IMG/VR virus record: IMGVR_UViG_3300031578_000046
Coordinates: 1-53,888 of that record
Length of the DNA stretch: 53,888 bases
Reading direction: 5' to 3' (one strand)
Source: a virus
Taxonomy: Duplodnaviria; Caudoviricetes
In this document: piece by piece, positions 4,750 to 53,888 of the stretch
How positions within the stretch are numbered: position 1 is the first letter of the stretch
Layout of the letters: each line of letters opens with the position of its first letter
The notes under the pieces: generated by a model
Databases searched by the model: none
What the model saw: the letters and a program-made list of their open reading frames with translations, nothing else
Told to the model about the DNA's origin: nothing
Position numbers and translations under genes: made by a program

Positions 4750-4980
4750 TTAATAATTATCGGTTACAAGTTTTAAACCATTAAATTTATAAATTTTTAA
4801 TTTTCGTTTTATTGCCCCCTGATAGCTTATATTTTCATCTTTGGCATATTGTGATAATGTTTTAATATTTAAAATAATAGCAACGTGTTCAAAAATTTGA
4901 ACCAAATCATCATTATTTAGCTCTCCCTTATGAATACATGCAAATAATCTATCTTTTATAATAAGCGATCTATCAGACAT
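4750..4980 (-). CDS. Small putative DNA-binding (HTH-like) protein adjacent to attI-like site
   Basis: KTLSQYAKDENISYQGAIKR resembles an HTH; start codon 40 bp from the array crossover at 5021. Confidence 0.65.
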   Translation of the reverse strand: MSDRSLIIKDRLFACIHKGELNNDDLVQIFEHVAIILNIKTLSQYAKDENISYQGAIKRKLKIYKFNGLKLVTDNY

Positions 4981-4989
4981 TTATGTTAA

Positions 4990-5023
4990 GTTTAAAATTT
5001 TGAACTGACTTTATACAATTGTT
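4990..5023 (+). other. attI-like array entry site, copy 1
   Basis: GTTTAAAATTTTGAACTGACTTTATACAATT-GTT, directly before the first cassette. Confidence 0.7.
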
Positions 5024-5294
5024 AGCGGCAAGCGAAGAAAGGCTTCGGCATTGGCTTCCAATATATTATTTTATTACTTGGTGGTGGACTGCTTTTATAT
5101 CTATTTTCCCACTTCTCACTACCATCGGTAAATTTAAAGTGCATTAAATGGTGTATTGTTCTGTTTTCAAGCATTACAATATATTCTGCTGTCATATCTG
5201 TTTGCGGTGGATAAAAAATATATGAACGCCAGCCGCTAACAAGCAATATAAAAAATGCCTTAAAGTGTGCTAAAATTGAAGTTCTTGTTTTCAT
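5022..5294 (-). CDS. Cassette gene, DUF551-like C-terminus
   Basis: IIYWKPMPKP motif; starts in attC loop, TAA at crossover. Confidence 0.6.
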   Translation of the reverse strand: MKTRTSILAHFKAFFILLVSGWRSYIFYPPQTDMTAEYIVMLENRTIHHLMHFKFTDGSEKWENRYKSSPPPSNKIIYWKPMPKPFFACR

Positions 5295-5697: not shown

Positions 5698-5951
5698 AAT
5701 TACGTTGCCTAACAATAAATATAGCAAATAGCCAAGTTAGGCGTGCATTTGTCACTATCTGCGTGTTTATAATCATTTTACTGTATTCAAAGTTTGTGCT
5801 ATTTATGGCTACTTGCCATATTCTCAACGTTAGCAAACATTAAAACGATTTGCTAACACGGTATATAACCAATGCTTACCGTGTAGCTTCGTATTAAGTT
5901 TCTGCAAGTGCTTTAAAAATTTTGCCAACGCTCTTTAATTTTTTTCAAAAA

Positions 5952-6383
5952 TTATTTTTTAGTTTCATCACAAATATTATATTTTGGACAATAAGTACAT
6001 GGCTGTGGAGGTTTTAAAAAATCATCATTTTTTACAGTAAAAAATTCATATAAGTCTTTGCATAAATATCTATCACACTTTAAAGGCATTCTTTCACCTC
6101 CATTTTTAATTATTGATTTTATTCTTAATTTACCATAACGCCAAGGTGATTCTAATTTATATGAATACATTTGTATATTTTTTACTTTACAATAAAAATC
6201 TATACTTAAATACTCACCATCTTCAGATGTTTCAGTTTCTTTTATTAAATGTTTACAAAAATTAAAACACGAATGTTTATTATTAGGATTTTCTTTACAT
6301 GCTTTTTCGTGTTTTATGCAATCATTTGACCTTTTATAAATTTTATTACAGTAATCGCATTTAAAAGCTTCTATTTTTTCCAT
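5952..6383 (-). CDS. Cys-rich (zinc-finger-like) protein inside an attC loop
   Basis: CDYC...HEKAC and CTYC motifs. Confidence 0.65.
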   Translation of the reverse strand: MEKIEAFKCDYCNKIYKRSNDCIKHEKACKENPNNKHSCFNFCKHLIKETETSEDGEYLSIDFYCKVKNIQMYSYKLESPWRYGKLRIKSIIKNGGERMPLKCDRYLCKDLYEFFTVKNDDFLKPPQPCTYCPKYNICDETKK

Positions 6384-6547
6384 AATTTATTTATATTAAT
6401 GTTAAAAAATGCCCCCTAAAAATTTTTAAAACAGGAACTCCTGTTCTCGTATCGAAATTTGTAGGTTTATTCGCACTGGTCATATACCCACCGTTATGTA
6501 CAAGCGCAAAGCAGTACATCTAATAAAGTTCAGTGGGAGTAATTTTA

Positions 6548-6736
6548 TTATTTTTTCTTCCTACCTCCTCTTTTAACATCAAGTTTTCTAACTTCTAATT
6601 GCCAATCTAAATGTATCGGAAATTTTTTACCTTTTAAAGTATGATAATTATAACCTAATTCATCACACATAATTTTTAAATTACCAAACGGCATAATTTG
6701 CTTTTTATACCAATCAATATATAGTATTGTTTTCAT
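6548..6736 (-). CDS. Hypothetical protein (cassette cargo)
   Basis: ORF with AT-rich leader. Confidence 0.55.
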   Translation of the reverse strand: MKTILYIDWYKKQIMPFGNLKIMCDELGYNYHTLKGKKFPIHLDWQLEVRKLDVKRGGRKKK

Positions 6737-6862
6737 TTTTATTTTCCCAAAATATTATTGATGATTCAAATGGATATATAACTCTTGCTTGATGTTTTCC
6801 ACATTTAATACATTTTCTTTCAGAAGGAGTTATCATAATCCATTTATGTCTATGTAATAATT

Positions 6863-7054
6863 TCATATTTGTGTAGCTTTTAAATTACTTAAATCTGGAA
6901 AATTTATTAAACAATTGAGTTTATTAATCGCTCTGTGTTTTGCATTATCTTTAGTTGTGGCATCAATAAACATTGTTTTTCCTTCTGGAAATAATTTTTG
7001 AGCAAGTTTACAATTTCGCCCCTTACTACTTAATTCTACTGCAAATGTTTTCAT
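6863..7054 (-). CDS. Hypothetical protein (cassette cargo)
   Basis: ORF downstream of a promoter-like element near 7082. Confidence 0.55.
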   Translation of the reverse strand: MKTFAVELSSKGRNCKLAQKLFPEGKTMFIDATTKDNAKHRAINKLNCLINFPDLSNLKATQI

Positions 7055-7286
7055 ATATTATGTGATTTTTTTAATTATACGTAAATATAGTTATTATGTT
7101 TCTAATAAACAAGAATTATAGTGTTTATTTTTCTATTTTAATTAAAATATTTTTGCCATCACACAAAAAATAATAAAATTACCTTTCTTCGTAGCGTGCT
7201 AAGTGGCTGATAATGCGCCAGTACATAACACGCAATAAAGCACATTAAAACGATGCCTTATTGCTGTCCGTTGTACGCAATAAAAA

Positions 7287-7493
7287 TTACTTACGTACTA
7301 GTATATTTAATGGTTCTTTGCCTTTTCCTATCAAATATTTATCTACCGCAATTGCAGCTTCTCTTTCTGTATCATAAGTTTTTCTGCAAACATTTGGCAG
7401 TGTTATCATCCAGTAATTTTTATCAGTAGTTTGAGCACACTGCTGTACATATTTGTATTTACTTTTTCCGTATTTTGTTGTCTGTTGTGCCAT
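7287..7493 (-). CDS. AP2-like DNA-binding protein (cassette gene)
   Basis: SKYKYV...W...TYDTEREAAIAVD pattern. Confidence 0.55.
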   Translation of the reverse strand: MAQQTTKYGKSKYKYVQQCAQTTDKNYWMITLPNVCRKTYDTEREAAIAVDKYLIGKGKEPLNILVRK

Positions 7494-7602
7494 AAGTCGT
7501 AATTTTAAAAGCGTACAACACGCTGTATAGTTAATAAGCCGGATAGTTTTGTGCGTTGATTTGGGGCTGTGTGGTCGGCTTACATAACCATACAGCCATC
7601 CA

Positions 7603-7896
7603 TTATAAACAAGCGTAAATAAGCACACCTAAGATTAAACCAACTACAAAACCTACAATTCTGTTATTTATTGGATCGTTCCAAAAACGCCAGTTTATAA
7701 CATTTTGTAAATGCAAGCCGTTTGCGCTCGCATCAGCTTTCACAGCCGCACTATCTAAACTATCAAATACGGTGTCTTTAATCTCATCCCATATTTCAGG
7801 TTCGTGTTTTTTAATCAACCTTAATAATTTAAAGTAAGTTTCTCCATTCATTGAAACTCCGCTAATTGTCACTTTTACATCTTTAATATCTGCCAT
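7603..7896 (-). CDS. Cassette gene with C-terminal TM helix
   Basis: Starts in attC loop, TAA at crossover. Confidence 0.6.
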   Translation of the reverse strand: MADIKDVKVTISGVSMNGETYFKLLRLIKKHEPEIWDEIKDTVFDSLDSAAVKADASANGLHLQNVINWRFWNDPINNRIVGFVVGLILGVLIYACL

Positions 7897-7975
7897 CGCT
7901 CGGTTATTTATAATTTATATTCACGTTCATAATTTTGTGCTATTTTCAACAACGGCCAGCACTTACAAGTTGCCG

Positions 7976-8281
7976 TTAGCGGCAAGCTGGCCTCCACAAT
8001 TCAAATTTATCCATTAATCCGTCATCCCTCATCACCTTACCTACTCCTATATATTCAGCTTCTACCCAATCTATATTTCCTTTATATCTAATTCTATCAC
8101 CTATTTCTGGCTTTTCATCTTCAATATTCAGCCAGCCGCTAACATGCGGTATAGGTAATTTGCCGTCCTCCGATTTAAGTTTGTGCAAATCTGCCAAAAA
8201 ATTATCAACTAATTCTTTTGTTTCAAATCCTTCCAATGCTTTAGAAAGATTTTCATACTTTGTTATTAATTTCTGTATCAT
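7976..8281 (-). CDS. Cassette gene, hypothetical
   Basis: Starts in attC loop (LPIPHVSG), TAA at crossover. Confidence 0.6.
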   Translation of the reverse strand: MIQKLITKYENLSKALEGFETKELVDNFLADLHKLKSEDGKLPIPHVSGWLNIEDEKPEIGDRIRYKGNIDWVEAEYIGVGKVMRDDGLMDKFELWRPACR

Positions 8282-8355
8282 AATTTTTTTAAGTTAAGTA
8301 TTTCAATTCAAGTCTGGTGCGGTGCGTGGGGCAAACATACCCATACCGCCAGCCG

Positions 8356-8607
8356 TTAGGCACAATGGTAAGTTGCACCTTTCTTCCATTCCTCCACACG
8401 CTTTTGTGCTGCCTCTAATGTTTTAAAGCTTTTACTAAATGGTTGTAGTATCGGCCAAGTTTGTATCACACCACCCCACGCATTTGTTCTGTACCAACTC
8501 CATTCTTTGCGTTTCCACCAAAGCATTCCTTTTTCTTCATATCCTCGTATTTGTATCTCAAATGCTCCGCAATATTCTCTAATTCTATATTCTACTTCTT
8601 TTTTCAT
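8356..8607 (-). CDS. Cassette gene, hypothetical
   Basis: Fills the cassette body, TAA at crossover. Confidence 0.6.
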   Translation of the reverse strand: MKKEVEYRIREYCGAFEIQIRGYEEKGMLWWKRKEWSWYRTNAWGGVIQTWPILQPFSKSFKTLEAAQKRVEEWKKGATYHCA

Positions 8608-8748
8608 AAACCACTGTGCCTAACAATAAATATAGCAAATAGCCAAGTTAGGCTTGTATTTGTCACTATTTGCATGTTTATAATCATTTTACTGTATTCA
8701 AAGTTTTGTGCTATTTATGGCTACTTGCCATATTATCAACATTAGCAA

Positions 8749-9000
8749 CTATAAATTGCCTTCAATAAATCTATCTACGTGTCTTTCTGGTATGTACAGG
8801 TGCATTTCCTCGTCCTCATTAATCCATTCACGAAAGGCAATTAACAGTTCCCTTCGGTTGCTAACAACGGGTATAGCAAATAATTTTACTATCTTTTCTG
8901 TGTAATTGTTAATACTTTCTTGTATTTCACCAATTGTATTATCTCTCTCGGTAATCTGATTCTCAAATTCAATTAATAATTTTTTTACTTCTTTTTTCAT
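8749..9000 (-). CDS. Cassette gene, hypothetical
   Basis: Starts in attC loop (FAIPVVSN). Confidence 0.6.
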   Translation of the reverse strand: MKKEVKKLLIEFENQITERDNTIGEIQESINNYTEKIVKLFAIPVVSNRRELLIAFREWINEDEEMHLYIPERHVDRFIEGNL

Positions 9001-9055
9001 AATATAGTTTTTTAGTGTTTCAAATCCGTAAAATTACATTGCCATACCCAAAACG

Positions 9056-9295
9056 TTATAAAACATTTGCCAACCGCACTATTGTTGTCAATTTAATTTC
9101 TTCTTTTTTCAGTGGACATTCATTTGGGATATTTCCGTCACGGCTATTCTCGTGTGTTATTATCATACACTTGTATGGGTCTTTAAGCTTTTCAAAATAT
9201 GGATGACCACATTTCATAGCATTTCCTGATGTCGTGTAGAATGGACATTCATTCCAACATCCTTTTACTTTTTTGGTTTTCTTTATAATTTCCAT
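9056..9295 (-). CDS. Cassette gene, Cys-rich hypothetical
   Basis: CWNECPF...CPLK; TAA at crossover. Confidence 0.6.
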   Translation of the reverse strand: MEIIKKTKKVKGCWNECPFYTTSGNAMKCGHPYFEKLKDPYKCMIITHENSRDGNIPNECPLKKEEIKLTTIVRLANVL

Positions 9296-9490
9296 CGTTA
9301 AAAACGTTTTATAACAACGTATAAAATTAATTGCTACGTTATTGGGTTATTTAATGTATTTACTTTTAATCAATTTTTAGTAGTTTGCGAAAGTCGTGCA
9401 TCTAACACGCAACTAATCTTATACCAACGTTATACACAAGCGTAAGAAAGTTTCGTTCATTTAATCAACACCTGTGCAACCTTGCCATAA

Positions 9491-9679
9491 TTATTTTTTG
9501 CCTTCGCTCTTACAATTTTTCAAATTGTTTAGGAATTGGTTTAATGGTTCTTCCCAATGTTTAGCAAGTTTTTGAGAGCCGTTAACAGCTTTTACTAAAG
9601 TAGTGTCGGGCATCTTTAATTGTCGTTCTATTCCTCTAAGGCTTAACGAGTCTTTATTTTTTCTTAGCCATTCTAACAT
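9491..9679 (-). CDS. Small HTH protein (cassette cargo)
   Basis: LSLRGIERQLKMPDTTLVKAVNG, Cro-like HTH. Confidence 0.6.
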   Translation of the reverse strand: MLEWLRKNKDSLSLRGIERQLKMPDTTLVKAVNGSQKLAKHWEEPLNQFLNNLKNCKSEGKK

Positions 9680-10050
9680 GAAGCTCCGCTTAAATAGTTA
9701 GCCATATTGCATGTATCAAATAATGATGCAGGTTTTTTAATCCTTTCATTATTTTCTTCTAATCCTTTTAGGATCCATTCTAATTTTTGAATGTCTTGTA
9801 TTTGCTCCATTATCGTAATTCTGCCTTTACTTTCTCCTTCGCTACCAGTTTTATGAACTAAACACACAACACCACCAACCGAAACATAAGCACCTATTAT
9901 TTCATATTGGATTAAATCATCTTCAATATAATCAACCCAACCGCAACTACAATAAGCGTTTGTTTTTATACTATTATTAATAATACGCTCAGCCTCATTA
10001 CACATTAGCTTGATAAGGGCTTGTTTTGCTTCTTTAATTTCAGTTTTCAT
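9673..10050 (-). CDS. Hypothetical protein (cassette cargo)
   Basis: ORF downstream of the promoter at 10078-10085. Confidence 0.6.
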   Translation of the reverse strand: MKTEIKEAKQALIKLMCNEAERIINNSIKTNAYCSCGWVDYIEDDLIQYEIIGAYVSVGGVVCLVHKTGSEGESKGRITIMEQIQDIQKLEWILKGLEENNERIKKPASLFDTCNMANYLSGASC

Positions 10051-10077
10051 AATCTTAGTTTTTCGTTAAACAATATC

Positions 10078-10085
10078 CAAATATA
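10078..10085 (-). promoter_or_regulatory. Bacteroidota -7 promoter element
   Basis: TATATTTG on minus strand matches TAnnTTTG, 28 bp upstream of ATG. Confidence 0.55.
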
Positions 10086-10280
10086 AGGGTAATATATTTA
10101 ATATCCTAATATAAAGGTAAAAAAAGAACCCCTCCCTAAAAAATAATTATTACTTCCGTGTTTCAAATGTAGGTAAGTGATTAAACGCCAGTGTATAACA
10201 ACGCATAAAAATAAAAGCCTTTGGAAGCTTATTATTTCAAATTAACGTTGTAGTGTCGGCTTCAATTCTTATGCAAACCG

Positions 10281-10496
10281 TTAGGTTTCATTTGCCACCG
10301 CCACACGGTTATCAGACTCCCACGCCTCAATTGCAAAATGCTGTGACCGTATGTAGTTTTCATGACTACGATAGCCACATTTAGAACATTCAAGCCTAAA
10401 AGCAACACCGTTAAACGAACTGCCATTGTCTCCACATTCTTTGTCTATTTCTGCTTCTCCTCCGCATTTTTTACATGGTATTTTTTCTGTACTCAT
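10281..10496 (-). CDS. Lar-like zinc-ribbon protein (cassette gene)
   Basis: PCKKCGGEA...CSKCG...AIEAWE pattern of Lar restriction-alleviation-like proteins. Confidence 0.55.
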   Translation of the reverse strand: MSTEKIPCKKCGGEAEIDKECGDNGSSFNGVAFRLECSKCGYRSHENYIRSQHFAIEAWESDNRVAVANET

Positions 10497-10670
10497 AATC
10501 TTGTTTTTACCCCACCGCACAAAACGAAAACCTAACAATTTATATATTGCAAATTTTTTAGTAATTGTAGGTGAGTGGTTATTAATTTATTTTATCTCTA
10601 ATTGTTAATTTATCTCATTCTGGTTGCAAAATTCGACAACATATAAGTTGCCGTTAGCAGCCATACAAGG

Positions 10671-10847
10671 CTACTTTTCATATCTTATTGCTCTGTCTTT
10701 CATTATGTGCCCACACTCAATGCATGGCTTTTCAAACCACACTTTACCATCATGCTTACATCCTTTACATACAGTTATTTCAACCTTAGTAGTACGGCTG
10801 CTAACAATATGTTTAGGTAATTGGGATTTTGTGTTATCTTGTTTCAT
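10671..10847 (-). CDS. 58-aa Cys-rich cassette gene (not in ORF track)
   Basis: MKQDNTKSQLPKHIVSS...CKGC...CIEC; starts in attC loop. Confidence 0.5.
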   Translation of the reverse strand: MKQDNTKSQLPKHIVSSRTTKVEITVCKGCKHDGKVWFEKPCIECGHIMKDRAIRYEK

Positions 10848-10930
10848 TGCATTTCAATTTTAAGTTTATCAATATTTGGTAGGGTAGTGCAAGTAATCCC
10901 AACTACCCAAACACTCAACATTAGGGCGAA

Positions 10931-11251
10931 TTAAGCCGACTTAATAAGTTTAAGGCTATCTTCACCAAAACCCGAAAAAGAATTGAAATTATAGCAGGTG
11001 TTTGCTTTTACAAATGCTTTCTGCCAAAGTTCCATCCCTTTGCTTCCAAGTACATATAATGGAGTTCCGTCACAATCTCTAACGCATCCAATTATATACA
11101 GTCTCATTCCTGCATATTCACAATCTTCATCCCAAGCTATAATTTCAACCAAGTCATCTACTTTATACTTGTGCTGTTTAGCGTTATTTTCTTCTCTATA
11201 AGTTTTCCCAGTTTTCGGGTTTTTAAGGTCTGCAATATTTATAAGTTCCAT
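10931..11251 (-). CDS. Cassette gene, hypothetical
   Basis: Fills the cassette body 10920-11275. Confidence 0.65.
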   Translation of the reverse strand: MELINIADLKNPKTGKTYREENNAKQHKYKVDDLVEIIAWDEDCEYAGMRLYIIGCVRDCDGTPLYVLGSKGMELWQKAFVKANTCYNFNSFSGFGEDSLKLIKSA

Positions 11252-11665: not shown

Positions 11666-11797
11666 TTTATTTAAGTTTTGCGGCTTAAAGTACTACACAC
11701 AACAACGTATATAGTTAAAAAGCCATGTTAATATTCGTTCATTTAATCAGCGTTTGCAGTTGGCTTTCAAACCATATACCAACGTTAGCGGTAATTG

Positions 11798-12455: not shown

Positions 12456-12745
12456 AATAAAACGATTTGCTAACACAACCTATACACCATAAAGCGATAT
12501 AGTATTGTATTAAGATTAAACATTGTGCTCTTTTTGCTATGTCTATTTTTGGCATGAGTATTTTTTAATTTTTATTTATTAATAAGATATTATTTTTACC
12601 GGCTTCTTTACCTGCATAATAAAATTCTAAAAATTTAGTAAAAAATAACATATCAAATTCTTTTCGTGTAAATTTATTACTTATAGTTTCATAAACTTCG
12701 TCCATAAATTTAGTTATATCAAAACATTATTTTTCTTCAAAAAAA

Positions 12746-14134
12746 TTAAAACATGTCATTTTCGAATTCTTTATTTACTTCTAAATAATTATCAAATATT
12801 ACAATATCTTCAACATCCCATTTTGTAAGACTATTATCATTAACCTTTACTATTATATCATCTAACATTCCATTCCTATGTTTAGATATTATAATTTCGA
12901 CAATATTAACAAGCGAATTACCCTCATCATCTTGAAAAATTCCATATTTTTCAGGCCTATGTAAAAACATTACAATATCTGCATCTTGCTCAATAGCTCC
13001 TGATTCTCTTAAATCAGAAAGCTGAGGTCTTTTACTACTTCTGTTTTCAACACCTCTGTTCATTTGGCTTAATGCAATAATAGGTATATCTAATTCTTTT
13101 GCCAAAACCTTTAGCCCCCTGGATATACTTGATATTTCTTGTTCTCTACTTTTTTTATTTTGTTCATTCGAATTTGTCATTAATTGAATATAATCAATTA
13201 TTATCAATTGAATATCATATTTCATTTTTAATCTTCTTGCTTTAGCCCTTAATTCCATTAAAGATAATGCCGCCGTATCATCTAAATATATAGGCAAATC
13301 GACTATTTTGTTTAAATGATTATCCAATATTTCCCATTCTATATTACCATCTCTTAAATTAGTTGGTGTATATTCTGAATCAATACACATTAATCGCCCT
13401 GTTAATTGATTTGTTGACATCTCTAATGAAAATAAAGCAGTTGGCACATTTGAATTTTTAGCACAATTAAGCGCATAAGCAGTTTTTCCCATTGATGGCC
13501 GAGCTGCTATAATTATTAAATCAGTTTTTTGCCATCCTGAAATAATTCTATCCACCCTTGTTATACCAGAAGGAATACCAGTTAATTTATTTTTTTGCTT
13601 TTGTATTATTTCGATTTCTTTAATCTTATCTCTTATAGCTTCTTTTAAAATAACGGCATCTTTTTTAATATTAAAATCAGTCACTTGATATAATTCATTT
13701 TCAGAATAATCTATTAAATCTTCTAATTCAATTGATTCATCAAAGGCCATATTTTGTATGGCCGATGAAACCCTTATTAATTCCCTTTGTATAAATTTCT
13801 GATAAATAATTCTAGAATGAAACTCTATATTTGATGCAGAAGCAATACTATTAGTAAGTTGTATAATATAAAAAGGGCCACCAATTTGATCTAATTTGCC
13901 TGATAATCTTAATTGTTCTGTTATTGTTAATATATCAATAGGATTTGACTTTGTATTTAATTCTATTGCAGCTTTATATATTATTTGATGAGCTTCTTTA
14001 TAAAAGCTATCTGGTTTTAAAAAATCACATATTTCATAAATAGCATCTTGTTCTAACATTAAAGCTCCTAATACAGCTTCTTCCATATCCACAGCTTGCG
14101 GAGGTATTTTACCGTATTCAAAATAATTATTCAT
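12746..14134 (-). CDS. dnaB: Replicative DNA helicase
   Basis: PPQAVDMEEAVLGALM, AARPSMGKT, FSLEMS, IIIDYIQL, SDLRESGAIEQDAD, KHRNG. Confidence 0.97.
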   Translation of the reverse strand: MNNYFEYGKIPPQAVDMEEAVLGALMLEQDAIYEICDFLKPDSFYKEAHQIIYKAAIELNTKSNPIDILTITEQLRLSGKLDQIGGPFYIIQLTNSIASASNIEFHSRIIYQKFIQRELIRVSSAIQNMAFDESIELEDLIDYSENELYQVTDFNIKKDAVILKEAIRDKIKEIEIIQKQKNKLTGIPSGITRVDRIISGWQKTDLIIIAARPSMGKTAYALNCAKNSNVPTALFSLEMSTNQLTGRLMCIDSEYTPTNLRDGNIEWEILDNHLNKIVDLPIYLDDTAALSLMELRAKARRLKMKYDIQLIIIDYIQLMTNSNEQNKKSREQEISSISRGLKVLAKELDIPIIALSQMNRGVENRSSKRPQLSDLRESGAIEQDADIVMFLHRPEKYGIFQDDEGNSLVNIVEIIISKHRNGMLDDIIVKVNDNSLTKWDVEDIVIFDNYLEVNKEFENDMF

Positions 14135-17038: not shown

Positions 17039-17072
17039 GTTTAAAATTTTGAACTAACTTTATTCAATTGTT
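17039..17072 (+). other. attI-like array entry site, copy 2
   Basis: GTTTAAAATTTTGAACTAACTTTATTCAATT-GTT. Confidence 0.7.
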
Positions 17073-17448
17073 AGCAATCAGTTTGCCGAGCAGAGCAATC
17101 ATAATCACCGTGTTTACATATATTGTTTTCATTATTTGCACAAGCATTTGAGTAGCAAACCGAATTGCTAACAAGTTGTATAATTAATGCTTTGTTCTCG
17201 TCTGTAATTTTTGCCCACGCACACTTTTCTTTGTCAAGTCCGTACAAGGCATTGCTAATCTCATTGTTAATATCTTCCCACCTATCATCTTCCTCAATCT
17301 CCTGCTCTTCCTCACATCCGCATTGCCTGCATATAGTTGTGTTTAAATGCCACTTATTACTACATACACCATCGTTTAGGTCAAATATTGCTCCGCAATG
17401 CTCGCAGGGTGTTGGCATTTCCATTTGTTCTAAATCATATTCTTCCAT
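17071..17448 (-). CDS. Cassette gene, Cys-rich
   Basis: CEHC/CRQC; starts in attC loop, TAA at crossover. Confidence 0.6.
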   Translation of the reverse strand: MEEYDLEQMEMPTPCEHCGAIFDLNDGVCSNKWHLNTTICRQCGCEEEQEIEEDDRWEDINNEISNALYGLDKEKCAWAKITDENKALIIQLVSNSVCYSNACANNENNICKHGDYDCSARQTDC

Positions 17449-18849: not shown

Positions 18850-19188
18850 TTATAAATTGAAAGGTATGTTATTTTTCTCTAAATTCAAAATTATTTTGTT
18901 AAAAATAGCCTCATCAATTAATAAAATATCCATCATTACATCATTGAATAATGGTAATATTTCAATTGCATCTGTTATATTATTATCAAAAATATCATGA
19001 CATTGGTGATGTGCTAACCCTGTATTCAAATCCATACATTCATATTCTTTACTCTCAGATATTCTAATCTTATGGGCTAATTGACCATGACTTCCAATAA
19101 AATGGCCGCAAAAAATACAATAAGGCTCTTTTTCTATTAGCCACTTTTTACGTTTTGATTTCCAGTTTTTTATCTGATTATTTGTCAT
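18850..19188 (-). CDS. HNH-like endonuclease
   Basis: CIFCG...QLAH...NTGLAHHQCH. Confidence 0.55.
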   Translation of the reverse strand: MTNNQIKNWKSKRKKWLIEKEPYCIFCGHFIGSHGQLAHKIRISESKEYECMDLNTGLAHHQCHDIFDNNITDAIEILPLFNDVMMDILLIDEAIFNKIILNLEKNNIPFNL

Positions 19189-19640
19189 TATATAAAGTTT
19201 AAAATATCCCGTTCAAAATCCTCCATTGAAATATCTTTTAAAAAGTGTTTCAATATTACATCTAGAGATTTACTATAAATCTCGCTAAATTTATTATTAT
19301 CCATGCTTTTAAATGATATACTTCTTGCTTGCGGTATTGGATTACTATCCTCTTTTAATGTTGGGATTACATCAAATTCACCTATTAATATCATTATATA
19401 TTTTCTTATCTTATCAATATGGCCAAAATCAACCATTAAATTTTCCGGTAAATGATTAATAGTACAATTTAATAAAGCGAAGTACTTTCTATGAAAATCA
19501 ATATTCCTTTCTTTCCATGTTTCAATCTCACAATAATCGCCCTCATCTAATTTAAGTAACTTTTTAAAATTATCATCATTTATAGCACTAATTCCGGTCA
19601 TAAAAAATTCTAAGTTTTTTATTTGTAATTTAGCTTTCAT
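19188..19640 (-). CDS. DUF1367/NinB-like protein
   Basis: RNIDFHRKYFALL and RSISFKSMD...FSEIY. Confidence 0.7.
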   Translation of the reverse strand: MKAKLQIKNLEFFMTGISAINDDNFKKLLKLDEGDYCEIETWKERNIDFHRKYFALLNCTINHLPENLMVDFGHIDKIRKYIMILIGEFDVIPTLKEDSNPIPQARSISFKSMDNNKFSEIYSKSLDVILKHFLKDISMEDFERDILNFI

Positions 19641-20296: not shown

Positions 20297-21073
20297 TTAA
20301 AATAAAGTGTTATCAACATTTTCTTTTTTGAAACTTAATGGATATTCAAGTATTTTAGGATTAGCCTTTTTATTTGCCCTCCACCATAATTTTTGACAGT
20401 ATTCAAAATATTCATAATTTTCATCAATACTATTTTTCGACTCTTCTAATTTCCAACCCTTCCCCTGTATTACTTTGCCTGTTTTATCTTCGCCCCTGGT
20501 TGCAGCTTTTAAATGAAGTATTCCGGTTTTCTCAATCTTATAGTTAGGATTAAGCATATCCCATGCCTTAGCATAAGCCGCAATTTGTAAATAATGGCTA
20601 TCATAAACAGCATTACCTGACTTATAATCAATTAACCAAATTGAACCATTTAATTTGCATATCATATCAATTGTGCCGCCAAAACCTAGTTCATCTGATG
20701 CAAAAGAAAATTCATGAACTATAATTTCAGGATTATATTTAAACATAAATTCCATCGCCTTACAAAGAAGTACCCATTCATCCCATTTCCACAATTCAAC
20801 TTCATTATCATTCATATATTTTAATTGTCCTGTTTTAACAAATTGATCTATTCCGTTGTGTACATTACTCCCAATTTCACCAGCTTCTTTTAATATTTGC
20901 GAAGCATTCATCCCCACCTGTTTAAGCCAAATAGTAAAAGCAGCACCTTTTGGGTAGGCTTCAAGAAACGTTGTAACTGAGGGTAACCATGTACCCGGGT
21001 TTTTCTTTGATTCGTAGTAATGTTCGTCCGGAATTACTATCTTATTATTAAGATTGTCTATAAATTTATTCAT
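20297..21073 (-). CDS. PD-(D/E)XK exonuclease
   Basis: LPSVTT, GSNVH, GGTID...LIDYKS, QIAAY. Confidence 0.85.
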   Translation of the reverse strand: MNKFIDNLNNKIVIPDEHYYESKKNPGTWLPSVTTFLEAYPKGAAFTIWLKQVGMNASQILKEAGEIGSNVHNGIDQFVKTGQLKYMNDNEVELWKWDEWVLLCKAMEFMFKYNPEIIVHEFSFASDELGFGGTIDMICKLNGSIWLIDYKSGNAVYDSHYLQIAAYAKAWDMLNPNYKIEKTGILHLKAATRGEDKTGKVIQGKGWKLEESKNSIDENYEYFEYCQKLWWRANKKANPKILEYPLSFKKENVDNTLF

Positions 21074-22562: not shown

Positions 22563-22773
22563 AGTTTTAAATTTTGGTTTCGTTTAAATAATAAATATAA
22601 GCCAAAAATTCTTTCATGATCTGATTATCATTTTCAGTTACTTCGCTGCCTGGTGATAATTGATAAAGTTTATTTAATTGTTTCATAGCTGTTTGTTTAA
22701 TTATATTTAAAGATAATTAATAATTTTTATAAAATATATGACTTTTATCATGTTTTGTTATTTATAATCATTA

Positions 22774-22828
22774 TTAATAATTATCAGTTACAAGTTTTAA
22801 ACAAATTAATAAGCGATCTATCAGTCAT
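22774..22828 (-). pseudogene. Internally deleted remnant of gene 4750..4980
   Basis: Sequence matching 4750-4778 is joined to sequence matching 4959-4980. Confidence 0.75.
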
Positions 22829-22837
22829 TTATATTTA

Positions 22838-22871
22838 GTTTAAAATTTTGAACTAACTTTATTCAATTGTT
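22838..22871 (+). other. attI-like array entry site, copy 3
   Basis: GTTTAAAATTTTGAACTAACTTTATTCAATT-GTT. Confidence 0.7.
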
Positions 22872-24913: not shown

Positions 24914-25027
24914 TTTGTAAAGTTTTTAGTTAATAATTATTTGTTTTATTAATTATAACGTCTAAATTACGTATAAGTTTTAATATATTATATGACTTTT
25001 GTCATGTTTTGTTATTTATAACCATTA

Positions 25028-25082
25028 TTAATAATTATCAGTTACAAGTTTTAAACAAATTAATAAGCGATCTATCAGTCAT
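25028..25082 (-). pseudogene. Second deleted remnant of gene 4750..4980
   Basis: Same deletion junction as 22774-22828. Confidence 0.75.
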
Positions 25083-25091
25083 TTATATTTA

Positions 25092-25125
25092 GTTTAAATT
25101 TTTGAACTGACTTTATTCAATTGTT
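25092..25125 (+). other. attI-like array entry site, copy 4
   Basis: GTTTAAATTTTTGAACTGACTTTATTCAATT-GTT. Confidence 0.7.
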
Positions 25126-28851: not shown

Positions 28852-29136
28852 ATAACTTTATTAACTTCTAAATATTTATTATAAATATCTGTTTTATAAT
28901 ATTTATCTAAAAATTTAAAAAAATCATTTAATAAATAAGAAAATAAAAAAACTTTAAAGAACCAATTAACCGGAATAAATAAAAACAATCTTGATTTTTT
29001 ATTAAACTCGCTTTTTATTAGCCCCTCGGTTAATATGACTATTCCTGTATCTTTTATTGTTAAAATATATTGTTAATAATTTGTTAATATCATTTATTTT
29101 TTGTATCTTTCTTTTTTTAAACTAAAATTTACTACT

Positions 29137-29631
29137 ATGAAAAATTTATTTATTTTAATCGGTTTAGTTTTTGTTGTTAATTGTTATTCTCAAAGAGAAA
29201 ATATCCTAAGTTTTTCTTATGCTCCTGGTTCAAATGAAATAGGATTAATTTACATTTCAAAACCTATTTTTAGCTTGCAAAAAGATTATAAGCTTTATTC
29301 TTCATTCGAATATGGTAATTATAAACTAATTGAAAGAAAAGTAAGCCGTATTGGTCTAGGGTTTTCAACTGATATAGATTCGAGAGTTAGTTATAACTTT
29401 GCTATTTCTATAAATATTGAAAAATCAGATACCGTTATTATTAGTTATACATCTGGAGGTATTACAACTAATGTTATTCCAGTAAGACCAATTACCTCTG
29501 AAATGGGGTTAACATTTCAAATTAGTCAAAGAACTTATTTAACAATTATGTCTGATCTAATTCATCAAGCCATATTTTATAATAATTTTGCAGCCCCTCA
29601 TTTTAAATTTGGACTAGGTTATAAATTTTAA
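29137..29631 (+). CDS. Putative outer-membrane beta-barrel protein (moron)
   Basis: Signal peptide, amphipathic beta strands, C-terminal FGLGYKF; only credible plus-strand gene. Confidence 0.7.
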   Translation: MKNLFILIGLVFVVNCYSQRENILSFSYAPGSNEIGLIYISKPIFSLQKDYKLYSSFEYGNYKLIERKVSRIGLGFSTDIDSRVSYNFAISINIEKSDTVIISYTSGGITTNVIPVRPITSEMGLTFQISQRTYLTIMSDLIHQAIFYNNFAAPHFKFGLGYKF

Positions 29632-50335: not shown

Positions 50336-50662
50336 TTTGATTAAAATATTAACTGGCGGTAACACACAATAAAAAATATATGGGTGTTTGTGCCAAATTG
50401 TGCAGCTGTACCTTTAATTTGATTCAATGTATGCGGATAGGCTACTGCTTTAAATCCCATACATTTCTTATTGCCAACATTATACACAAGCGTAAGAAAG
50501 TTTCGTTCATTTAATCAACACCTGTGCAAACTTGCCATAATTATTTTTGCCCTCGCACATGTTCTACAAGTAAGTCCTGTATATAATTTTTAAGGTCTTT
50601 TTTTGCCTTTACTGCAAGTATTTGAAGCTTTTCAAGTACTTTGTTTTCTTCTGGTATATCTA

Positions 50663-50851
50663 TTAGTTTTCGCATTTCCACATTTTTTCAATTTCACTTC
50701 CAGTTAGCGCATGTGCTTTTCTATTTTCATAGTATTTATCACACAATTCTTGTTGCTCAAATTTTGCAAGGTCATAGTTCCACCACGCCATTGCACTTTG
50801 TCTATATTTGCTCATGTTATTAAAAATTATCCCATTCAGAAATACTTCCAC
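50663..50851 (-). CDS. Hypothetical protein (cassette cargo)
   Basis: AMAWWN...LTGSEIEKMW. Confidence 0.55.
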   Translation of the reverse strand: MEVFLNGIIFNNMSKYRQSAMAWWNYDLAKFEQQELCDKYYENRKAHALTGSEIEKMWKCEN

Positions 50852-51059
50852 TATTGTTTTTCAATCTCAATCTTAGGTTTACAATTCCTTTTATATCATA
50901 AGTGCTTCTTACGTACTTGATAGCCGATTCCATTTTGTGAAATCCTAAACCAAAAACCTCTAATCTATTCCAAATATCACTATGTCCTAGCGCATATTCA
51001 ACTTCAAAAATATCTTCCATAATCTTAGTATTAAATTTGTTTCTGTAAATATATAACAT
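50820..51059 (-). CDS. Hypothetical protein (cassette cargo)
   Basis: ORF; likely start MEDIFE. Confidence 0.5.
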   Translation of the reverse strand: MLYIYRNKFNTKIMEDIFEVEYALGHSDIWNRLEVFGLGFHKMESAIKYVRSTYDIKGIVNLRLRLKNNSGSISEWDNF

Positions 51060-51230
51060 ATATACGACATATACAAATAAAAATTATAGAAAATAACCCC
51101 TCCCTAAGAAAATAATTATTACTTTCGTGTTCCAAATGTAGGTAAGTGATTAAACGCCAGTGTATAACAACGCATAAAAATAAAAGCCTTTGGAAGCTTA
51201 TTATTTCAAATTAACGTTGTAGTGTCGGCT

Positions 51231-51557
51231 TCAATTCTTATGCAAACCGTTATGGGCATTAACCACTTGTCGTAATCTATCAAATTCTTTATTGTCAAAT
51301 AAATCATCGTCTGGATAAATTTCAAACTCATAAAGCTTTATTTGCTTATATTCTGGATACATATTTTCATACATCCAATTTTCAATCCAAGAGCTATTTT
51401 CAAATTCAGTTCTAATAGTATCTCCTTGGCATAAATTTATATAGCATAACAATTGCTGTTTATCTTCAAAATCTCCATAAAGCTTTTTGGTGTCAACAAC
51501 TTGTTTTTTTGTTTCGTTTATAAAGTACATTTGAATACTCATATCACACAATGCCAC
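51231..51557 (-). CDS. Cassette gene, hypothetical
   Basis: Fills the cassette and reads into the adjacent attC. Confidence 0.6.
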   Translation of the reverse strand: MALCDMSIQMYFINETKKQVVDTKKLYGDFEDKQQLLCYINLCQGDTIRTEFENSSWIENWMYENMYPEYKQIKLYEFEIYPDDDLFDNKEFDRLRQVVNAHNGLHKN

Positions 51558-52589: not shown

Positions 52590-52662
52590 TCTAATTATTT
52601 TAAAGTTTTTTTAATTGATCTTCTAAATATTCATTGTGAGTTTACTCCACTGTTATAAACAA

Positions 52663-52869
52663 TTAGCCCTCGCACCGCTCTTTCAAGCATACTTTTGAAG
52701 AACATCTTTTGAGGTACTTATTGCAGAAATAAACCTGCTTAACCTCCATGCTTTCTATTCCCTTAGTGTTAGGTCTAAATTCTACTTTTTCAGTTTCTTT
52801 CGTATTCATTAATTCCGCAGTTTTGTTCTGCAAACACTCGCTGAATTGTATTCTAAATGATTTTGCCAT
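52663..52869 (-). CDS. Cassette gene, hypothetical
   Basis: Fills the cassette body. Confidence 0.55.
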   Translation of the reverse strand: MAKSFRIQFSECLQNKTAELMNTKETEKVEFRPNTKGIESMEVKQVYFCNKYLKRCSSKVCLKERCEG

Positions 52870-52882
52870 CGCTAATAAAAGT

Positions 52883-53161
52883 TTATAACAATATGTATAT
52901 GTAATACAGCCAATTAAGTTTAGTTTTAAGTTGAAAATATGTGCAAGGCTGTACTACACATACATTCAACGGTGTACATAAGGTAATTGTGCAATCTGGG
53001 CAAGTCCCATTAGTCATTAAGATATGTTCGTTGCAAATTTCGCAAACCGCCACTTCGTTATTTCTAACAATAGATAAACGCAATATTTCGTTTTGCATTT
53101 TACCTTTTGTTAGTTCTCCTTTATTGTATCTGTCTACAATTTTTTGTATTTCTAATCTCAT
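52883..53161 (-). CDS. Cassette gene, possibly chimeric/read-through
   Basis: Starts in one attC loop and reads through the next attC. Confidence 0.45.
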   Translation of the reverse strand: MRLEIQKIVDRYNKGELTKGKMQNEILRLSIVRNNEVAVCEICNEHILMTNGTCPDCTITLCTPLNVCVVQPCTYFQLKTKLNWLYYIYILL

Positions 53162-53484: not shown

Positions 53485-53888
53485 TTATCCCATTCCCTTT
53501 AGAACTGCAAAGAATCTATAAGAAAGTAAATCTACTAAATCAATATCCCGGCCTAAAGATTCAATTATCTGTTTACGTGAAATGATTTCAAGTTTATTAT
53601 TCTCTGAATATTTATTTTGCTTAACATGCTGTAATTCCTGTTTTAATTCATCATTAGGAAACTTACATTCAACAGATAAAGTACCGTTATTGATTGATTT
53701 AATGAAATAAAAATAAAGCTGATGTTTAAAATTTTTATAATTTTCTCTGCCTATTGGTTGTTTATCTGGTTTAATTCGTAAAGCTCCATAAAAATATTTA
53801 TTAAATTCACCGGTTGTATCGAAATAAACAACATCATTCATTGACTGTTTTAGCTTCATTACAGCAAGTGTTATCTTCTTTACATACT
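53485..53888 (-). CDS. 3' part of junction-spanning terminase C-terminal-like gene
   Basis: NFKHQLYFYF...ELKQEL...KLEIISRKQIIESLGRDIDLVDLLSYRFF. Confidence 0.7.
   Translation of the reverse strand, partial: YVKKITLAVMKLKQSMNDVVYFDTTGEFNKYFYGALRIKPDKQPIGRENYKNFKHQLYFYFIKSINNGTLSVECKFPNDELKQELQHVKQNKYSENNKLEIISRKQIIESLGRDIDLVDLLSYRFFAVLKGMG
53712..53888 (+). repeat. Terminal overlap, copy 2
   Basis: Matches 1-177 with one mismatch. Confidence 0.95.

Follow-up and report, generated by a model that had tools for sequence, protein, structure and literature searches.

What kind of element places nearly identical flanks around different genes at two distant positions of one phage genome is the question raised by this locus. 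The window, i.e., the whole stretch of DNA that was analyzed (53,888 nucleotides [nt]), is the IMG/VR virus record IMGVR_UViG_3300031578_000046 of a soil phage, and the element is a two-part shell, consisting of an upstream and a downstream flank, that encloses one cargo in cassette A and another in cassette B, 41 kb away. The initial annotation had described it as a reusable, vector-like cassette that captures promoter-bearing early-gene segments. In our judgment, the A/B repeat probably belongs, albeit with moderate confidence, to a family of portable cassettes found in variable genome regions of soil phages. All 106 genes called in the window are on the minus strand in the map of open reading frames (ORFs), and the cassettes are described on this coding strand.

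Shells and cargoes of the cassette family

The repeated shell was confirmed by self-BLAST and by a repeat search, with ends within about 5 to 9 nt of those first annotated. The upstream flanks (10122-10283 and 51090-51252) are 97.5% identical over 163 nt (E = 4e-77), with ~120 consecutive identical positions in the alignment, and the downstream flanks (9424-9498 and 50474-50548) are 97.3% identical over 75 nt (E = 2e-31); the repeat search returns the identical flank pairs. The GCCYTCGC and CCCCTCCCT motifs and the ATAATTATTTT/AAAATAATTAT repeat are present where the initial annotation had placed them. Between the flanks, the cargo DNA of A and B has no similarity in self-BLAST (word size 9, E = 1e-3), and no cargo proteins of the two are similar at E < 0.05; the cargoes of A and B show no homology to each other. 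They are alike solely in a 12-nt island, ACTAAGATTATG, located at the first start codon, where the 12 nt ahead of the start codon of A are common to cassette B.

The same shell type is found with different cargo in this genome and in otherwise unrelated phages. A 24-mer from the upstream arm retrieved three metagenome contigs (L012, L010, and L011), two of which, L012 and L010, match the window at about 99% identity. The third, L011, is another phage, the upstream arm of which is identical over 47 nt; it retains the 13-bp inner stem, the remainder of its downstream arm differs, and its cargo C contains a 91-aa ORF and a small, frameshift-split ORF ending in KSEGKK*. The three sequenced cargoes of the A-type shell are A and B in the window and C in L011. 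The reusable shell of the initial annotation is thereby retained, while capture of cargo by the shell is not, as no mechanism for it was shown.

Profiles built from the flanks of A, B, and L011 were searched against the window with nhmmer. The best matches outside the flank copies, at 7239-7164 (upstream type, E = 0.064) and 6556-6488 (downstream type, E = 0.042), are in the right order, about 610 nt apart, and have compensatory changes in both arms; they delimit a diverged cassette, D (7286-6480). Degenerate arm patterns pointed to four further viral records (G002, G003, L021, and L020), the last of which was discarded as a chance 19-mer match. G002 contains five consecutive cassettes (G0 to G4), each with its own inner stem (13 to 19 bp) and its own outer helix; the three cassettes of the window stand alone. 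The cargoes of G002 are two acidic proteins, each with a small protein; proteins of 132 and 67 aa; a single 82-aa ORF; and a 286-aa DNA methylase. In G3 and G4, the promoter spacer is missing, and the T-run leads straight into the start codon. L021 contains a D-type cassette with a further cargo of 119 and 95 aa, and the D-type shell is thus found with three cargoes in three viral records (window, G002, and L021).

The D-type arms are 88 to 94% identical at the nucleotide level between the window, G002, G003, and L021, and in all four records the similarity begins exactly at the outer helix GTTATGTAC, with unrelated DNA to its left. The DnaB proteins of the window and G003 are 36% identical, and only four other window ORFs match G002, G003, or L021, at 34 to 57% identity, including 50341-50487, a 48-aa ORF that is probably no gene. 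The only other window DNA that matches these three records is the intergenic stretch 50357-50484 following cassette B, which is 81.5% identical to positions 12681-12810 of the otherwise unrelated phage G003. Because the arms outlast the similarity of the genomes, the frame has either moved between distant phages or been unusually constrained while its content changed.

The last cargo genes fall into one or two small families (D3, G2b, and G0b; B3 and C2), and the cargoes are therefore not wholly unrelated across the cassette family; the initial annotation of unrelated cargo holds for A and B. The cargo proteins gave nothing significant against Pfam, PHROGs, and PADLOC, and the only homologue of D3 in a set of 5.8 billion proteins is D3 itself. 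Other searches yielded little. The phage GenBank collection has no match to 9380-10330, exact shell probes have no match in viral contigs or bacterial genomes, and a locus search based on DnaB found nothing; the relatives identified by the portal gene (L003-L005/G001) have no shell and only the structural module in common with the window.

The objection that the repeat is an assembly chimera was also checked. A chimera is unlikely: L012, an independent contig, extends at 99.3% identity from the unique flank across both shells of A and the cargo between them, L010 links the upstream shell of B with its unique flank, and a 744-nt Logan contig covers 9450-10193 without any difference. Other Logan joints (9511 to 10137, 9524 to 10138, and 9670 to 10066; intervening sequence not visible) hint at further cargo in the A-type shell, and the joint 9498 to 10140 fits copy B. 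In run X4, the depth summed over contigs is 88 to 101 for the shell versus 6 to 24 for the cargo, which is a weak hint. A contig from the same run contains an A2-like gene (9509-9670; 19 differences in 162 nt) joined to 10066 across a different first gene, which suggests that exchange also takes place inside the cassette.

A cassette begins with a hairpin after the previous stop codon, followed by an upstream arm of ~65 nt, with a T-run and a G-rich box at its end, and, usually, by a promoter-like spacer. One to three small ORFans follow, of which the last is often a small, possibly DNA-binding protein, and then a G-rich box, an A-run, and the downstream arm, which extends to ...AAC followed by G(T/G)TGG. 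In cassette A, the upstream shell (10118-10285) starts at the TAA of the preceding 85-aa gene, inside TAACGG. Its parts are a hairpin resembling a terminator (~10205-10237), one strand each of the outer helix (GTTATACAC, 10191-10199) and of the inner stem (ATAATTATTTTTT, 10138-10150), and a G-rich box (AGGGAGGGG, 10121-10129). A variable AT-rich spacer (10051-10117) has a promoter-like -7 box, TATATTTG, at 10078-10085, as judged by the motif. The cargo consists of A1 (9673-10050; 125 aa), which has no family match, and A2 (9491-9679; 62 aa), which may be a helix-turn-helix protein (weak matches to HTH_SB, E = 0.028, and to a CI-like repressor PHROG, E = 0.004); the final codons of A2 (KSEGKK*) are encoded by the downstream shell. 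This shell (9424-9511) has a G-rich box of its own (GCGAAGGC, 9500-9507) and the opposite strands of the inner stem (AAAAAATAATTAT, 9487-9499) and of the outer helix (GTGTATAAC, 9429-9437), and it ends in the boundary motif TAACGTTG (9425-9432).

The upstream shell of cassette B (51087-51254), which the preceding 108-aa ORF enters by 22 nt, has its outer-helix strand at 51160-51168 and its inner-stem strand at 51108-51119. Cargo B (50541-51086) has a promoter-like TTG-N20-TATATTTA at 51046-51076 and, in place of the two small genes annotated initially, three by ORF call: B1 (50820-51020; 66 aa), B2 (50663-50851; 62 aa; uncertain, as it needs a GTG start), and B3 (50541-50675; 44 aa), which is possibly a ribbon-helix-helix protein. 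Since the A-run in B is one base shorter, B3 ends in RGQK* inside the shell, where A2 ends in KSEGKK*. The downstream shell of B (50474-50556) ends in TAATGTTG (50475-50482).

The upstream shell of cassette D (7160-7286) has the hairpin after the stop codon, the outer-helix strand GTTATGTAC at 7221-7229, and the inner-stem strand GTAATTTTATTATTTTTT at 7165-7182. Cargo D (6548-7159) has a promoter-like motif at 7082-7112 and ORFs at 6863-7054 (63 aa), 6714-6866 (50 aa), and 6548-6736 (62 aa, ending in KRGGRKKK*). The downstream shell (6480-6562) has the inner-stem strand AAAAAATAATAAAATTAC at 6539-6556 and the outer-helix strand GTACATAAC at 6493-6501 and ends in TAACGGTGGGTATATGA (6480-6496).

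Predicted pairing between the arms

The two flanks of a cassette are imperfect inverted repeats of each other, with about 50 predicted pairs, and the arms of each cassette are complementary to each other more than to the arms of other families. In A, the outer helix is formed by GTTATACAC with GTGTATAAC and the middle helix by TTTAATCA with TGATTAAA, followed by the inner stem; the complementary arms of the cassettes are 240 to 821 nt apart, on either side of the cargo. The energies predicted by RNAduplex are -41.9 kcal/mol for A, -37.1 kcal/mol for B, -45.9 kcal/mol for D, and -42.3 to -56.1 kcal/mol for G0 to G4, and in none of these eight cassettes is the observed value attained by any of 200 dinucleotide-shuffled downstream arms. 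With L021 (-40.0 kcal/mol, z = -4.4), pairing of a cassette's own arms exceeds all shuffles in nine of nine two-armed cassettes. When shorter arms are used, the observed value is reached by 0, 1, and 0 of 500 shuffles for A, B, and D, respectively. In an 8 x 8 matrix of arms, the best downstream partner belongs to the same cassette or shell family for seven of the eight upstream arms; the arms of cassette D pair at -45.9 to -47.3 kcal/mol with each other (no shuffle reaches this) and at only -24.5 to -30.7 kcal/mol with those of A and B. The short AT-only 11-nt inverted repeat of the initial annotation is present and forms the inner tip of this long complementarity, while on its own it does not exceed chance (16 matches versus 12.7 expected; 18 of 100 shuffles reach 16).

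The sequences of the helices vary between cassettes in a compensatory manner. The outer helix is GTTATACAC/GTGTATAAC in A; GTTATGTAC/GTACATAAC in D, G1, and L021; GTTGTGTG/CACACAAC in G0; GTTAGCTG/CAGCTAAC in G2; and GTTAGTTG/CAACTAAC in G4. These are five versions (ATACAC, ATGTAC, GTGTG, AGCTG, and AGTTG) between a constant GTT and a constant AAC, and all are complementary. A conserved internal loop (upstream YTG versus downstream TTG) follows the outer helix, and then a second short covarying helix; the inner stem comprises 13 bp in A and 18 bp in D, with the differences mirrored on both arms. Each arm also has conserved stretches that do not pair. A search with 11-mers (at most one mismatch) for outer-helix partners of each boundary motif was too strict to be informative.

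The hairpin that follows the previous stop codon is stable in A, L014, and D (z = -3.1 to -3.6) and has a z of -1.3 in L011; between A and L014, it covaries, G-U pairs included. No Rfam family matches the window at the gathering score, the one weak match in 6300-10400 (E = 0.15) lies outside the shells, and a tRNA scan of the window found nothing. An 18-codon micro-ORF in the upstream arm was rejected as a gene, since its three copies differ by two nonsynonymous changes and one synonymous change and it shows no sign of coding constraint.

Boundary motif and genome context

Gene blocks are gained or lost between near-identical genomes, and the breakpoints coincide exactly with the TAAC|G boundary motif. 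A 635-nt block (10286-10920, minus strand) is present here and absent from near-identical variants; it contains a Lar-like 85-aa gene and a 58-aa gene and is bounded by CC|TAACGG at 10285 and CC|TAATGTTG at 10925. The deletion junction in L012, GCCC|TAACGG, is formed from the sites at 10925 and 10285, and a Logan joint of run X4 (10280 to 10921, with a 5-nt overlap) has the same form. L010, which is otherwise 99 to 99.9% identical to the window, is without 52653-52970 (318 nt), which lies between half-motifs. A further mosaic breakpoint is at the copy of TAACGTTG at 11780-11787 (minus strand), where the similarity to L012 stops (11787-11796).

Both outer ends of the A/B similarity are at the boundary motif. 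The upstream shell of A starts with the variant TAACGGTTTGCATAAGA, the downstream end of cassette D reads ATAACGGTGGGTATATGA, and the short motif TAAYG(G)TTG recurs directly at both cassette ends, which the rest of the shell does not. TAAYGTTG is also free-standing in intergenic DNA, just after stop codons; further intergenic copies of the boundary motif are at 5825, 8737, 10916, 26795, and 51674. CAACGTTA occurs 7 times versus 1.27 expected (0 of 100 shuffles reach 7), AAYGKT is within 25 nt of the stop codon in 16 of 106 genes versus about 5 expected, and a stop codon followed by CG is found in 8 of 106 genes versus 2.1 expected. A role of the motif as a promoter was rejected, there being no -7 box at a fixed distance.

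A motif of the type TTG-N20-21-TAnnTTT(G/A) is present in most cassettes, in agreement with the initial annotation of promoter-bearing segments as far as the motif goes; it is promoter-like, is of the Bacteroidota type, and lies inside the shell. The description of these segments as early does not apply to copy B, which lies between the terminase and portal genes. We take TAnnTTTG-type boxes to be typical of Bacteroidota, and the hosts of these uncultivated soil phages are probably Bacteroidota.

Beside these motifs, several repeats and gene blocks were observed. An intergenic module of ~130 nt at 5706-5836 and 8617-8748 (95% identical) starts with TAAYGTTGAG and ends with TTGTTAGGC; it is also found at 10884-10934, has a related copy in the distant relative G001 (locus L006), and is preceded at 5840-5870 by a local 9-bp hairpin, GTTAGCAAA/TTTGCTAAC. 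This module may be a structured RNA or an "empty" boundary element. A second intergenic family, at 22724-22871 and 24978-25125 (95% identity over 148 nt, 2254 nt apart) and also at 4959-5024 and 17039-17075, starts after stop codons with GCTAACAATTGAATAAAG. The 85-aa gene just upstream of cassette A (10281-10538, minus strand) encodes a zinc-ribbon protein that weakly matches restriction alleviation proteins of the Lar type (Pfam E = 3e-4, PHROG E = 4e-6), and the block 52653-52970 consists of a 68-aa gene and the end of a 92-aa gene. In L021, a perfect 92-nt inverted repeat of the D-type downstream arm (9471-9562 and 10139-10230) encloses 576 nt with a methyltransferase-like gene that has a DPPY motif; a recent inversion or duplication by way of the arms would explain it, as would an assembly artifact.

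Positions 1-177 of the window recur at 53712-53888 with one difference (self-repeat search and self-BLAST), and L010 crosses the junction between the two copies; the genome is therefore ~53.7 kb and circularly permuted or terminally redundant. The record itself is listed as linear and 51% complete, for which the end repeat indicates a complete genome of ~53.7 kb. The G+C content is ~30%, and the genome encodes terminase, portal, major head, and tail-fiber proteins, DnaB, a DNA methylase, a replication initiator, and a DnaA-C-like helix-turn-helix protein. The sole sizeable plus-strand ORF (29101-29631) is in a 793-nt gap between the early and tail modules; its signal-peptide-like start (MKNLFILIGLVF...) and its end (...GLGYKF) resemble an outer-membrane beta-barrel protein, and it may be a moron.

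Explanations and known systems

We consider the most probable explanation, at somewhat better than even chances, to be that these are portable insulated cassettes with cassette-specific bracketing stems, exchanged by recombination in the conserved shell in a manner like that of the promoter-early stem-loop (PeSL) modules. The shell would serve as a context-independent frame, in which the hairpin would stop incoming transcription, the cargo's own promoter would drive its genes, and the paired arms would seal the unit, most likely by forming in read-through RNA a stalk for processing or insulation. The shell and the boundary motif would double as short homologies, at which general recombination, including that by the phage exonuclease and NinB/Orf-type mediator, would swap cargo and duplicate, insert, or delete cassettes. 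Because the window encodes this exonuclease (20297-21073) and this mediator (19188-19640), the rearrangements are most simply explained by general recombination at short homologies.

The stem could well be an RNA stalk or insulator, which we hold as a tentative view. The hairpin is a good RNA structure in A, D, and L014, the arm of G3 and G4 must be transcribed as a 5' leader, and bracketing stalks are a known way of cutting units out of long transcripts. A DNA-level structure for recombination or excision is also possible, if more doubtful, and would not exclude a role in RNA.

Several observations weigh against the portable, insulated cassettes. The upstream arm of G4 pairs better with downstream arms from other cassettes, the upstream shell of G003 is a solo copy that lacks a partner within 6 kb, and in L011 the pairing is reduced to the 13-bp inner stem; such solo upstream shells mean that the arm may have a function of its own or that copies are decaying. 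The arm pairing is a prediction from duplex energies. The raw advantage in stability of the coding strand (seven of eight cassettes) is gone after correction for composition, the corrected z score being better on the coding strand in five of nine cassettes and on the opposite strand in four. Since the strand advantage is an effect of composition, there is no strand evidence for RNA over DNA, and the argument from strand asymmetry was dropped after composition-matched controls. The promoter-like motif is not enriched genome-wide (18 matches on the coding strand versus 28 on the opposite strand), and in seven of nine two-armed cassettes it lies downstream of the upstream arm; with the promoter inside, the cassette's own transcript would lack this arm, and a stalk needs read-through RNA. 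Furthermore, the junctions are equally compatible with a site-specific enzyme, the helix-turn-helix and ribbon-helix-helix labels on cargo proteins come from weak matches and from reading the sequence, and the genes are simple ORF calls.

Integron-like recombination that recognizes structure is an unlikely alternative to the portable cassettes, in which the folded arms would be a single-stranded DNA site cut at AAC|G by a recombinase of the host or of another phage. Integrated integron cassettes begin with TTRRRY, which pairs with their own RYYYAA near the 3' end, and attC is a compact palindrome of 60 to 140 nt 3' of the ORF with R'' RYYYAAC and R' GTTRRRY. The arrays of small, mostly ORFan cassettes and the covariation of a site in which the AAC/GTT triplets stay constant, as integrons are generally known to have, are matched here by the five-cassette array of G002 and by helices that covary while only GTT...AAC and the internal loop are constant, which suits the recognition of structure. 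The junctions are exactly at the boundary motif, which contains the palindrome AACGTT, and G002 encodes a 268-aa tyrosine recombinase (L018, 11378-12184, minus strand; Phage_integrase E = 7e-39) about 1 kb beyond its array. This enzyme has no relative in the window by tblastn, and in a six-frame search with PF00589 only G002, one of five records, is positive; the window, which has three cassettes, has 0 matches. No tyrosine recombinase was found in G003 (95% complete), no serine recombinases in the five records (six-frame), and no site-specific recombinase of either type in the window (Pfam and PHROGs on 40 ORFs; six-frame tyrosine and serine searches). The palindrome here spans the whole cargo rather than following an ORF, the triplets are at the outer and not the inner end of the stem, the 5' strands (GTTATAC, GTTATGT, GTTAGCT, GTTAGTT, and GTTGTGT) do not fit GTTRRRY, and most cassettes have a promoter-like motif of their own. 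With no IntI or other integrase, with repeats that bracket genes, and with a core of this kind, the label attC of the initial annotation was withdrawn.

Slightly less credible is the reading of the shells as ordinary duplicated regulatory DNA, i.e., terminator-leader and 3' hairpin regions with complementarity as a by-product, for example, of opposed protein-binding sites. Other repeated intergenic modules abound (5706-5836/8617-8748 and 22724-22871/24978-25125), each arm has its nonpairing conserved stretches, and solo upstream shells exist; moreover, GTTATACAC resembles what we take to be the DnaA box consensus, and the phage encodes the DnaA-C-like protein. Such a reading does not account for arms that covary within the cassette across at least five sequence families, nor for the shared arms of A and B, which differ in their small proteins. 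It is difficult to see how a vertically inherited regulatory site would leave arms that are about 90% conserved at the nucleotide level when the replication proteins are 36% identical.

Nonautonomous elements similar to miniature inverted-repeat transposable elements (MITEs), with passenger genes, arms that act as long terminal inverted repeats, and a transposase in trans, are improbable. The ends are inverted repeats, the elements are found in otherwise unrelated genomes, and the D-type similarity in four records has its exact start at GTTATGTAC. On the other hand, no target-site duplication is seen at the junctions read (A, B, D, G1, and L021), the A/B similarity runs 85 nt past the inverted repeat to the previous stop codon, and the right boundary is blurred, with a semiconserved GG...GGTATGA following it. 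At least five arm families would demand equally many transposase specificities, and no transposase is among the 40 window ORFs scanned.

Bacteroidota invertons have inverted repeats around a promoter-bearing block, and an invertible segment that switches a block of promoter and genes on and off is suggested by the same arrangement here and by the methyltransferase-like gene inside the perfect 92-nt repeat of L021. It is highly improbable: all 10 cassettes (the nine two-armed ones and L011) are co-oriented with the neighboring genes, none of the 15 joints listed, out of 18 in four metagenome runs, involves a strand switch, the window is without a tyrosine or serine recombinase or an invertase, and the arms are long, imperfect, and bulged, unlike invertase sites. 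A repeat or cargo swap produced by misassembly of the metagenome, as might be suspected from Logan contigs that break inside the shells, as repeats would, and from L010, which starts inside the upstream shell of B, can be set aside with near certainty, given the independent span of L012, the recurrence of the architecture in four other records from other samples, and a diverged third copy that cannot come from misassembly.

Returning to the portable cassettes, we suggest only tentatively that they constitute an undescribed phage system, in which each unit is closed by its own covarying GTT...AAC stem as the functional mark of the unit. This stem might serve recombination as a structure-specific site, with no integrase resident in the phage, or act as a natural RNA insulator that frees any cargo from its context, and the frames, in arrays and as single copies, might spread horizontally between phages with almost no other sequence in common. 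No description of phage cassettes with cassette-specific inverted-repeat brackets was found in the open-access literature, which is no proof of absence. Variable regions of phages hold most of their unknown genes, including likely antidefense and host-takeover genes, and how such genes move between phages without disrupting anything is still largely an open question. The cassettes offer a unit defined by sequence, with a frame recognizable by structure and predictable AAC|G boundaries, and natural cases in which cargo has been exchanged, duplicated, lost, or spread across unrelated phages. If the RNA insulator is true, they would be a natural counterpart of the insulator parts of synthetic biology, and portable accessory genes could be found in viromes by the frame instead of the gene.

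Among known systems, RNase III stalks bracket the 16S and 23S rRNAs, and RNase III sites separate the early genes of T7; as is generally known, long-range pairing on either side of a gene delimits a unit in a long transcript there too, while the loop here consists of protein-coding genes and mostly a promoter, with predicted pairing. The Correia/NEMIS elements of Neisseria are short, have long inverted ends, fold in RNA, are cut by RNase III, and make target duplications; unlike the cassettes, they carry no genes. Phage morons are self-contained promoter-gene-terminator inserts, which to our knowledge do not share a reusable self-complementary frame. The pdif sites are 28-bp XerC/XerD sites with a common sequence, and dif modules, as commonly understood, resemble the cassettes as discrete gene modules with inverted flanking sites that are shuffled between replicons without their own recombinase. 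In comparison with the dif modules of Acinetobacter plasmids, the subject of two reports (PMC6449649, PMC13141974), the flanks here are 65 to 85 nt, imperfect, and family specific, and they are in phages, not plasmids; no search for the dif consensus was made. Integron cassettes, dif modules, MITEs, and invertons all resemble the cassettes in one or two features, and for each of them at least one defining feature is missing here.

The known concept that comes nearest is the PeSL of T4-type phages. According to the reports on it (PMC2839356, PMC4122927), it is a conserved module, made up of a terminator and a promoter, that lies on both sides of ORFans and through which they are shuffled; mini-circles have been demonstrated for PeSLs. 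In both systems, conserved intergenic modules (terminator plus promoter in the PeSLs, terminator-like and promoter-like here) are located in hyperplastic regions beside ORFans. Indels between close relatives are at the modules, as the junctions of L012, L010, and X4 are at the boundary motif, and the modules have been proposed as portable expression signals and recombination homology in one. As reported, a PeSL is a single motif of ~100 bp, directly repeated around the ORF, with a sigma-70 promoter, whereas the shells here are bipartite, with an upstream part unlike the downstream part, inverted, mutually complementary, and cassette specific, and only the boundary motif of 8 to 16 nt is directly repeated. 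The promoter-like boxes here are TAnnTTTG (Bacteroidota type) instead of TTGACA/TATAAT, and the phages are not T4-like, the genome of the window being 53.7 kb with all called genes on one strand. With PeSL as the closest counterpart, we assign these cassettes to the mobile regulatory cassettes.

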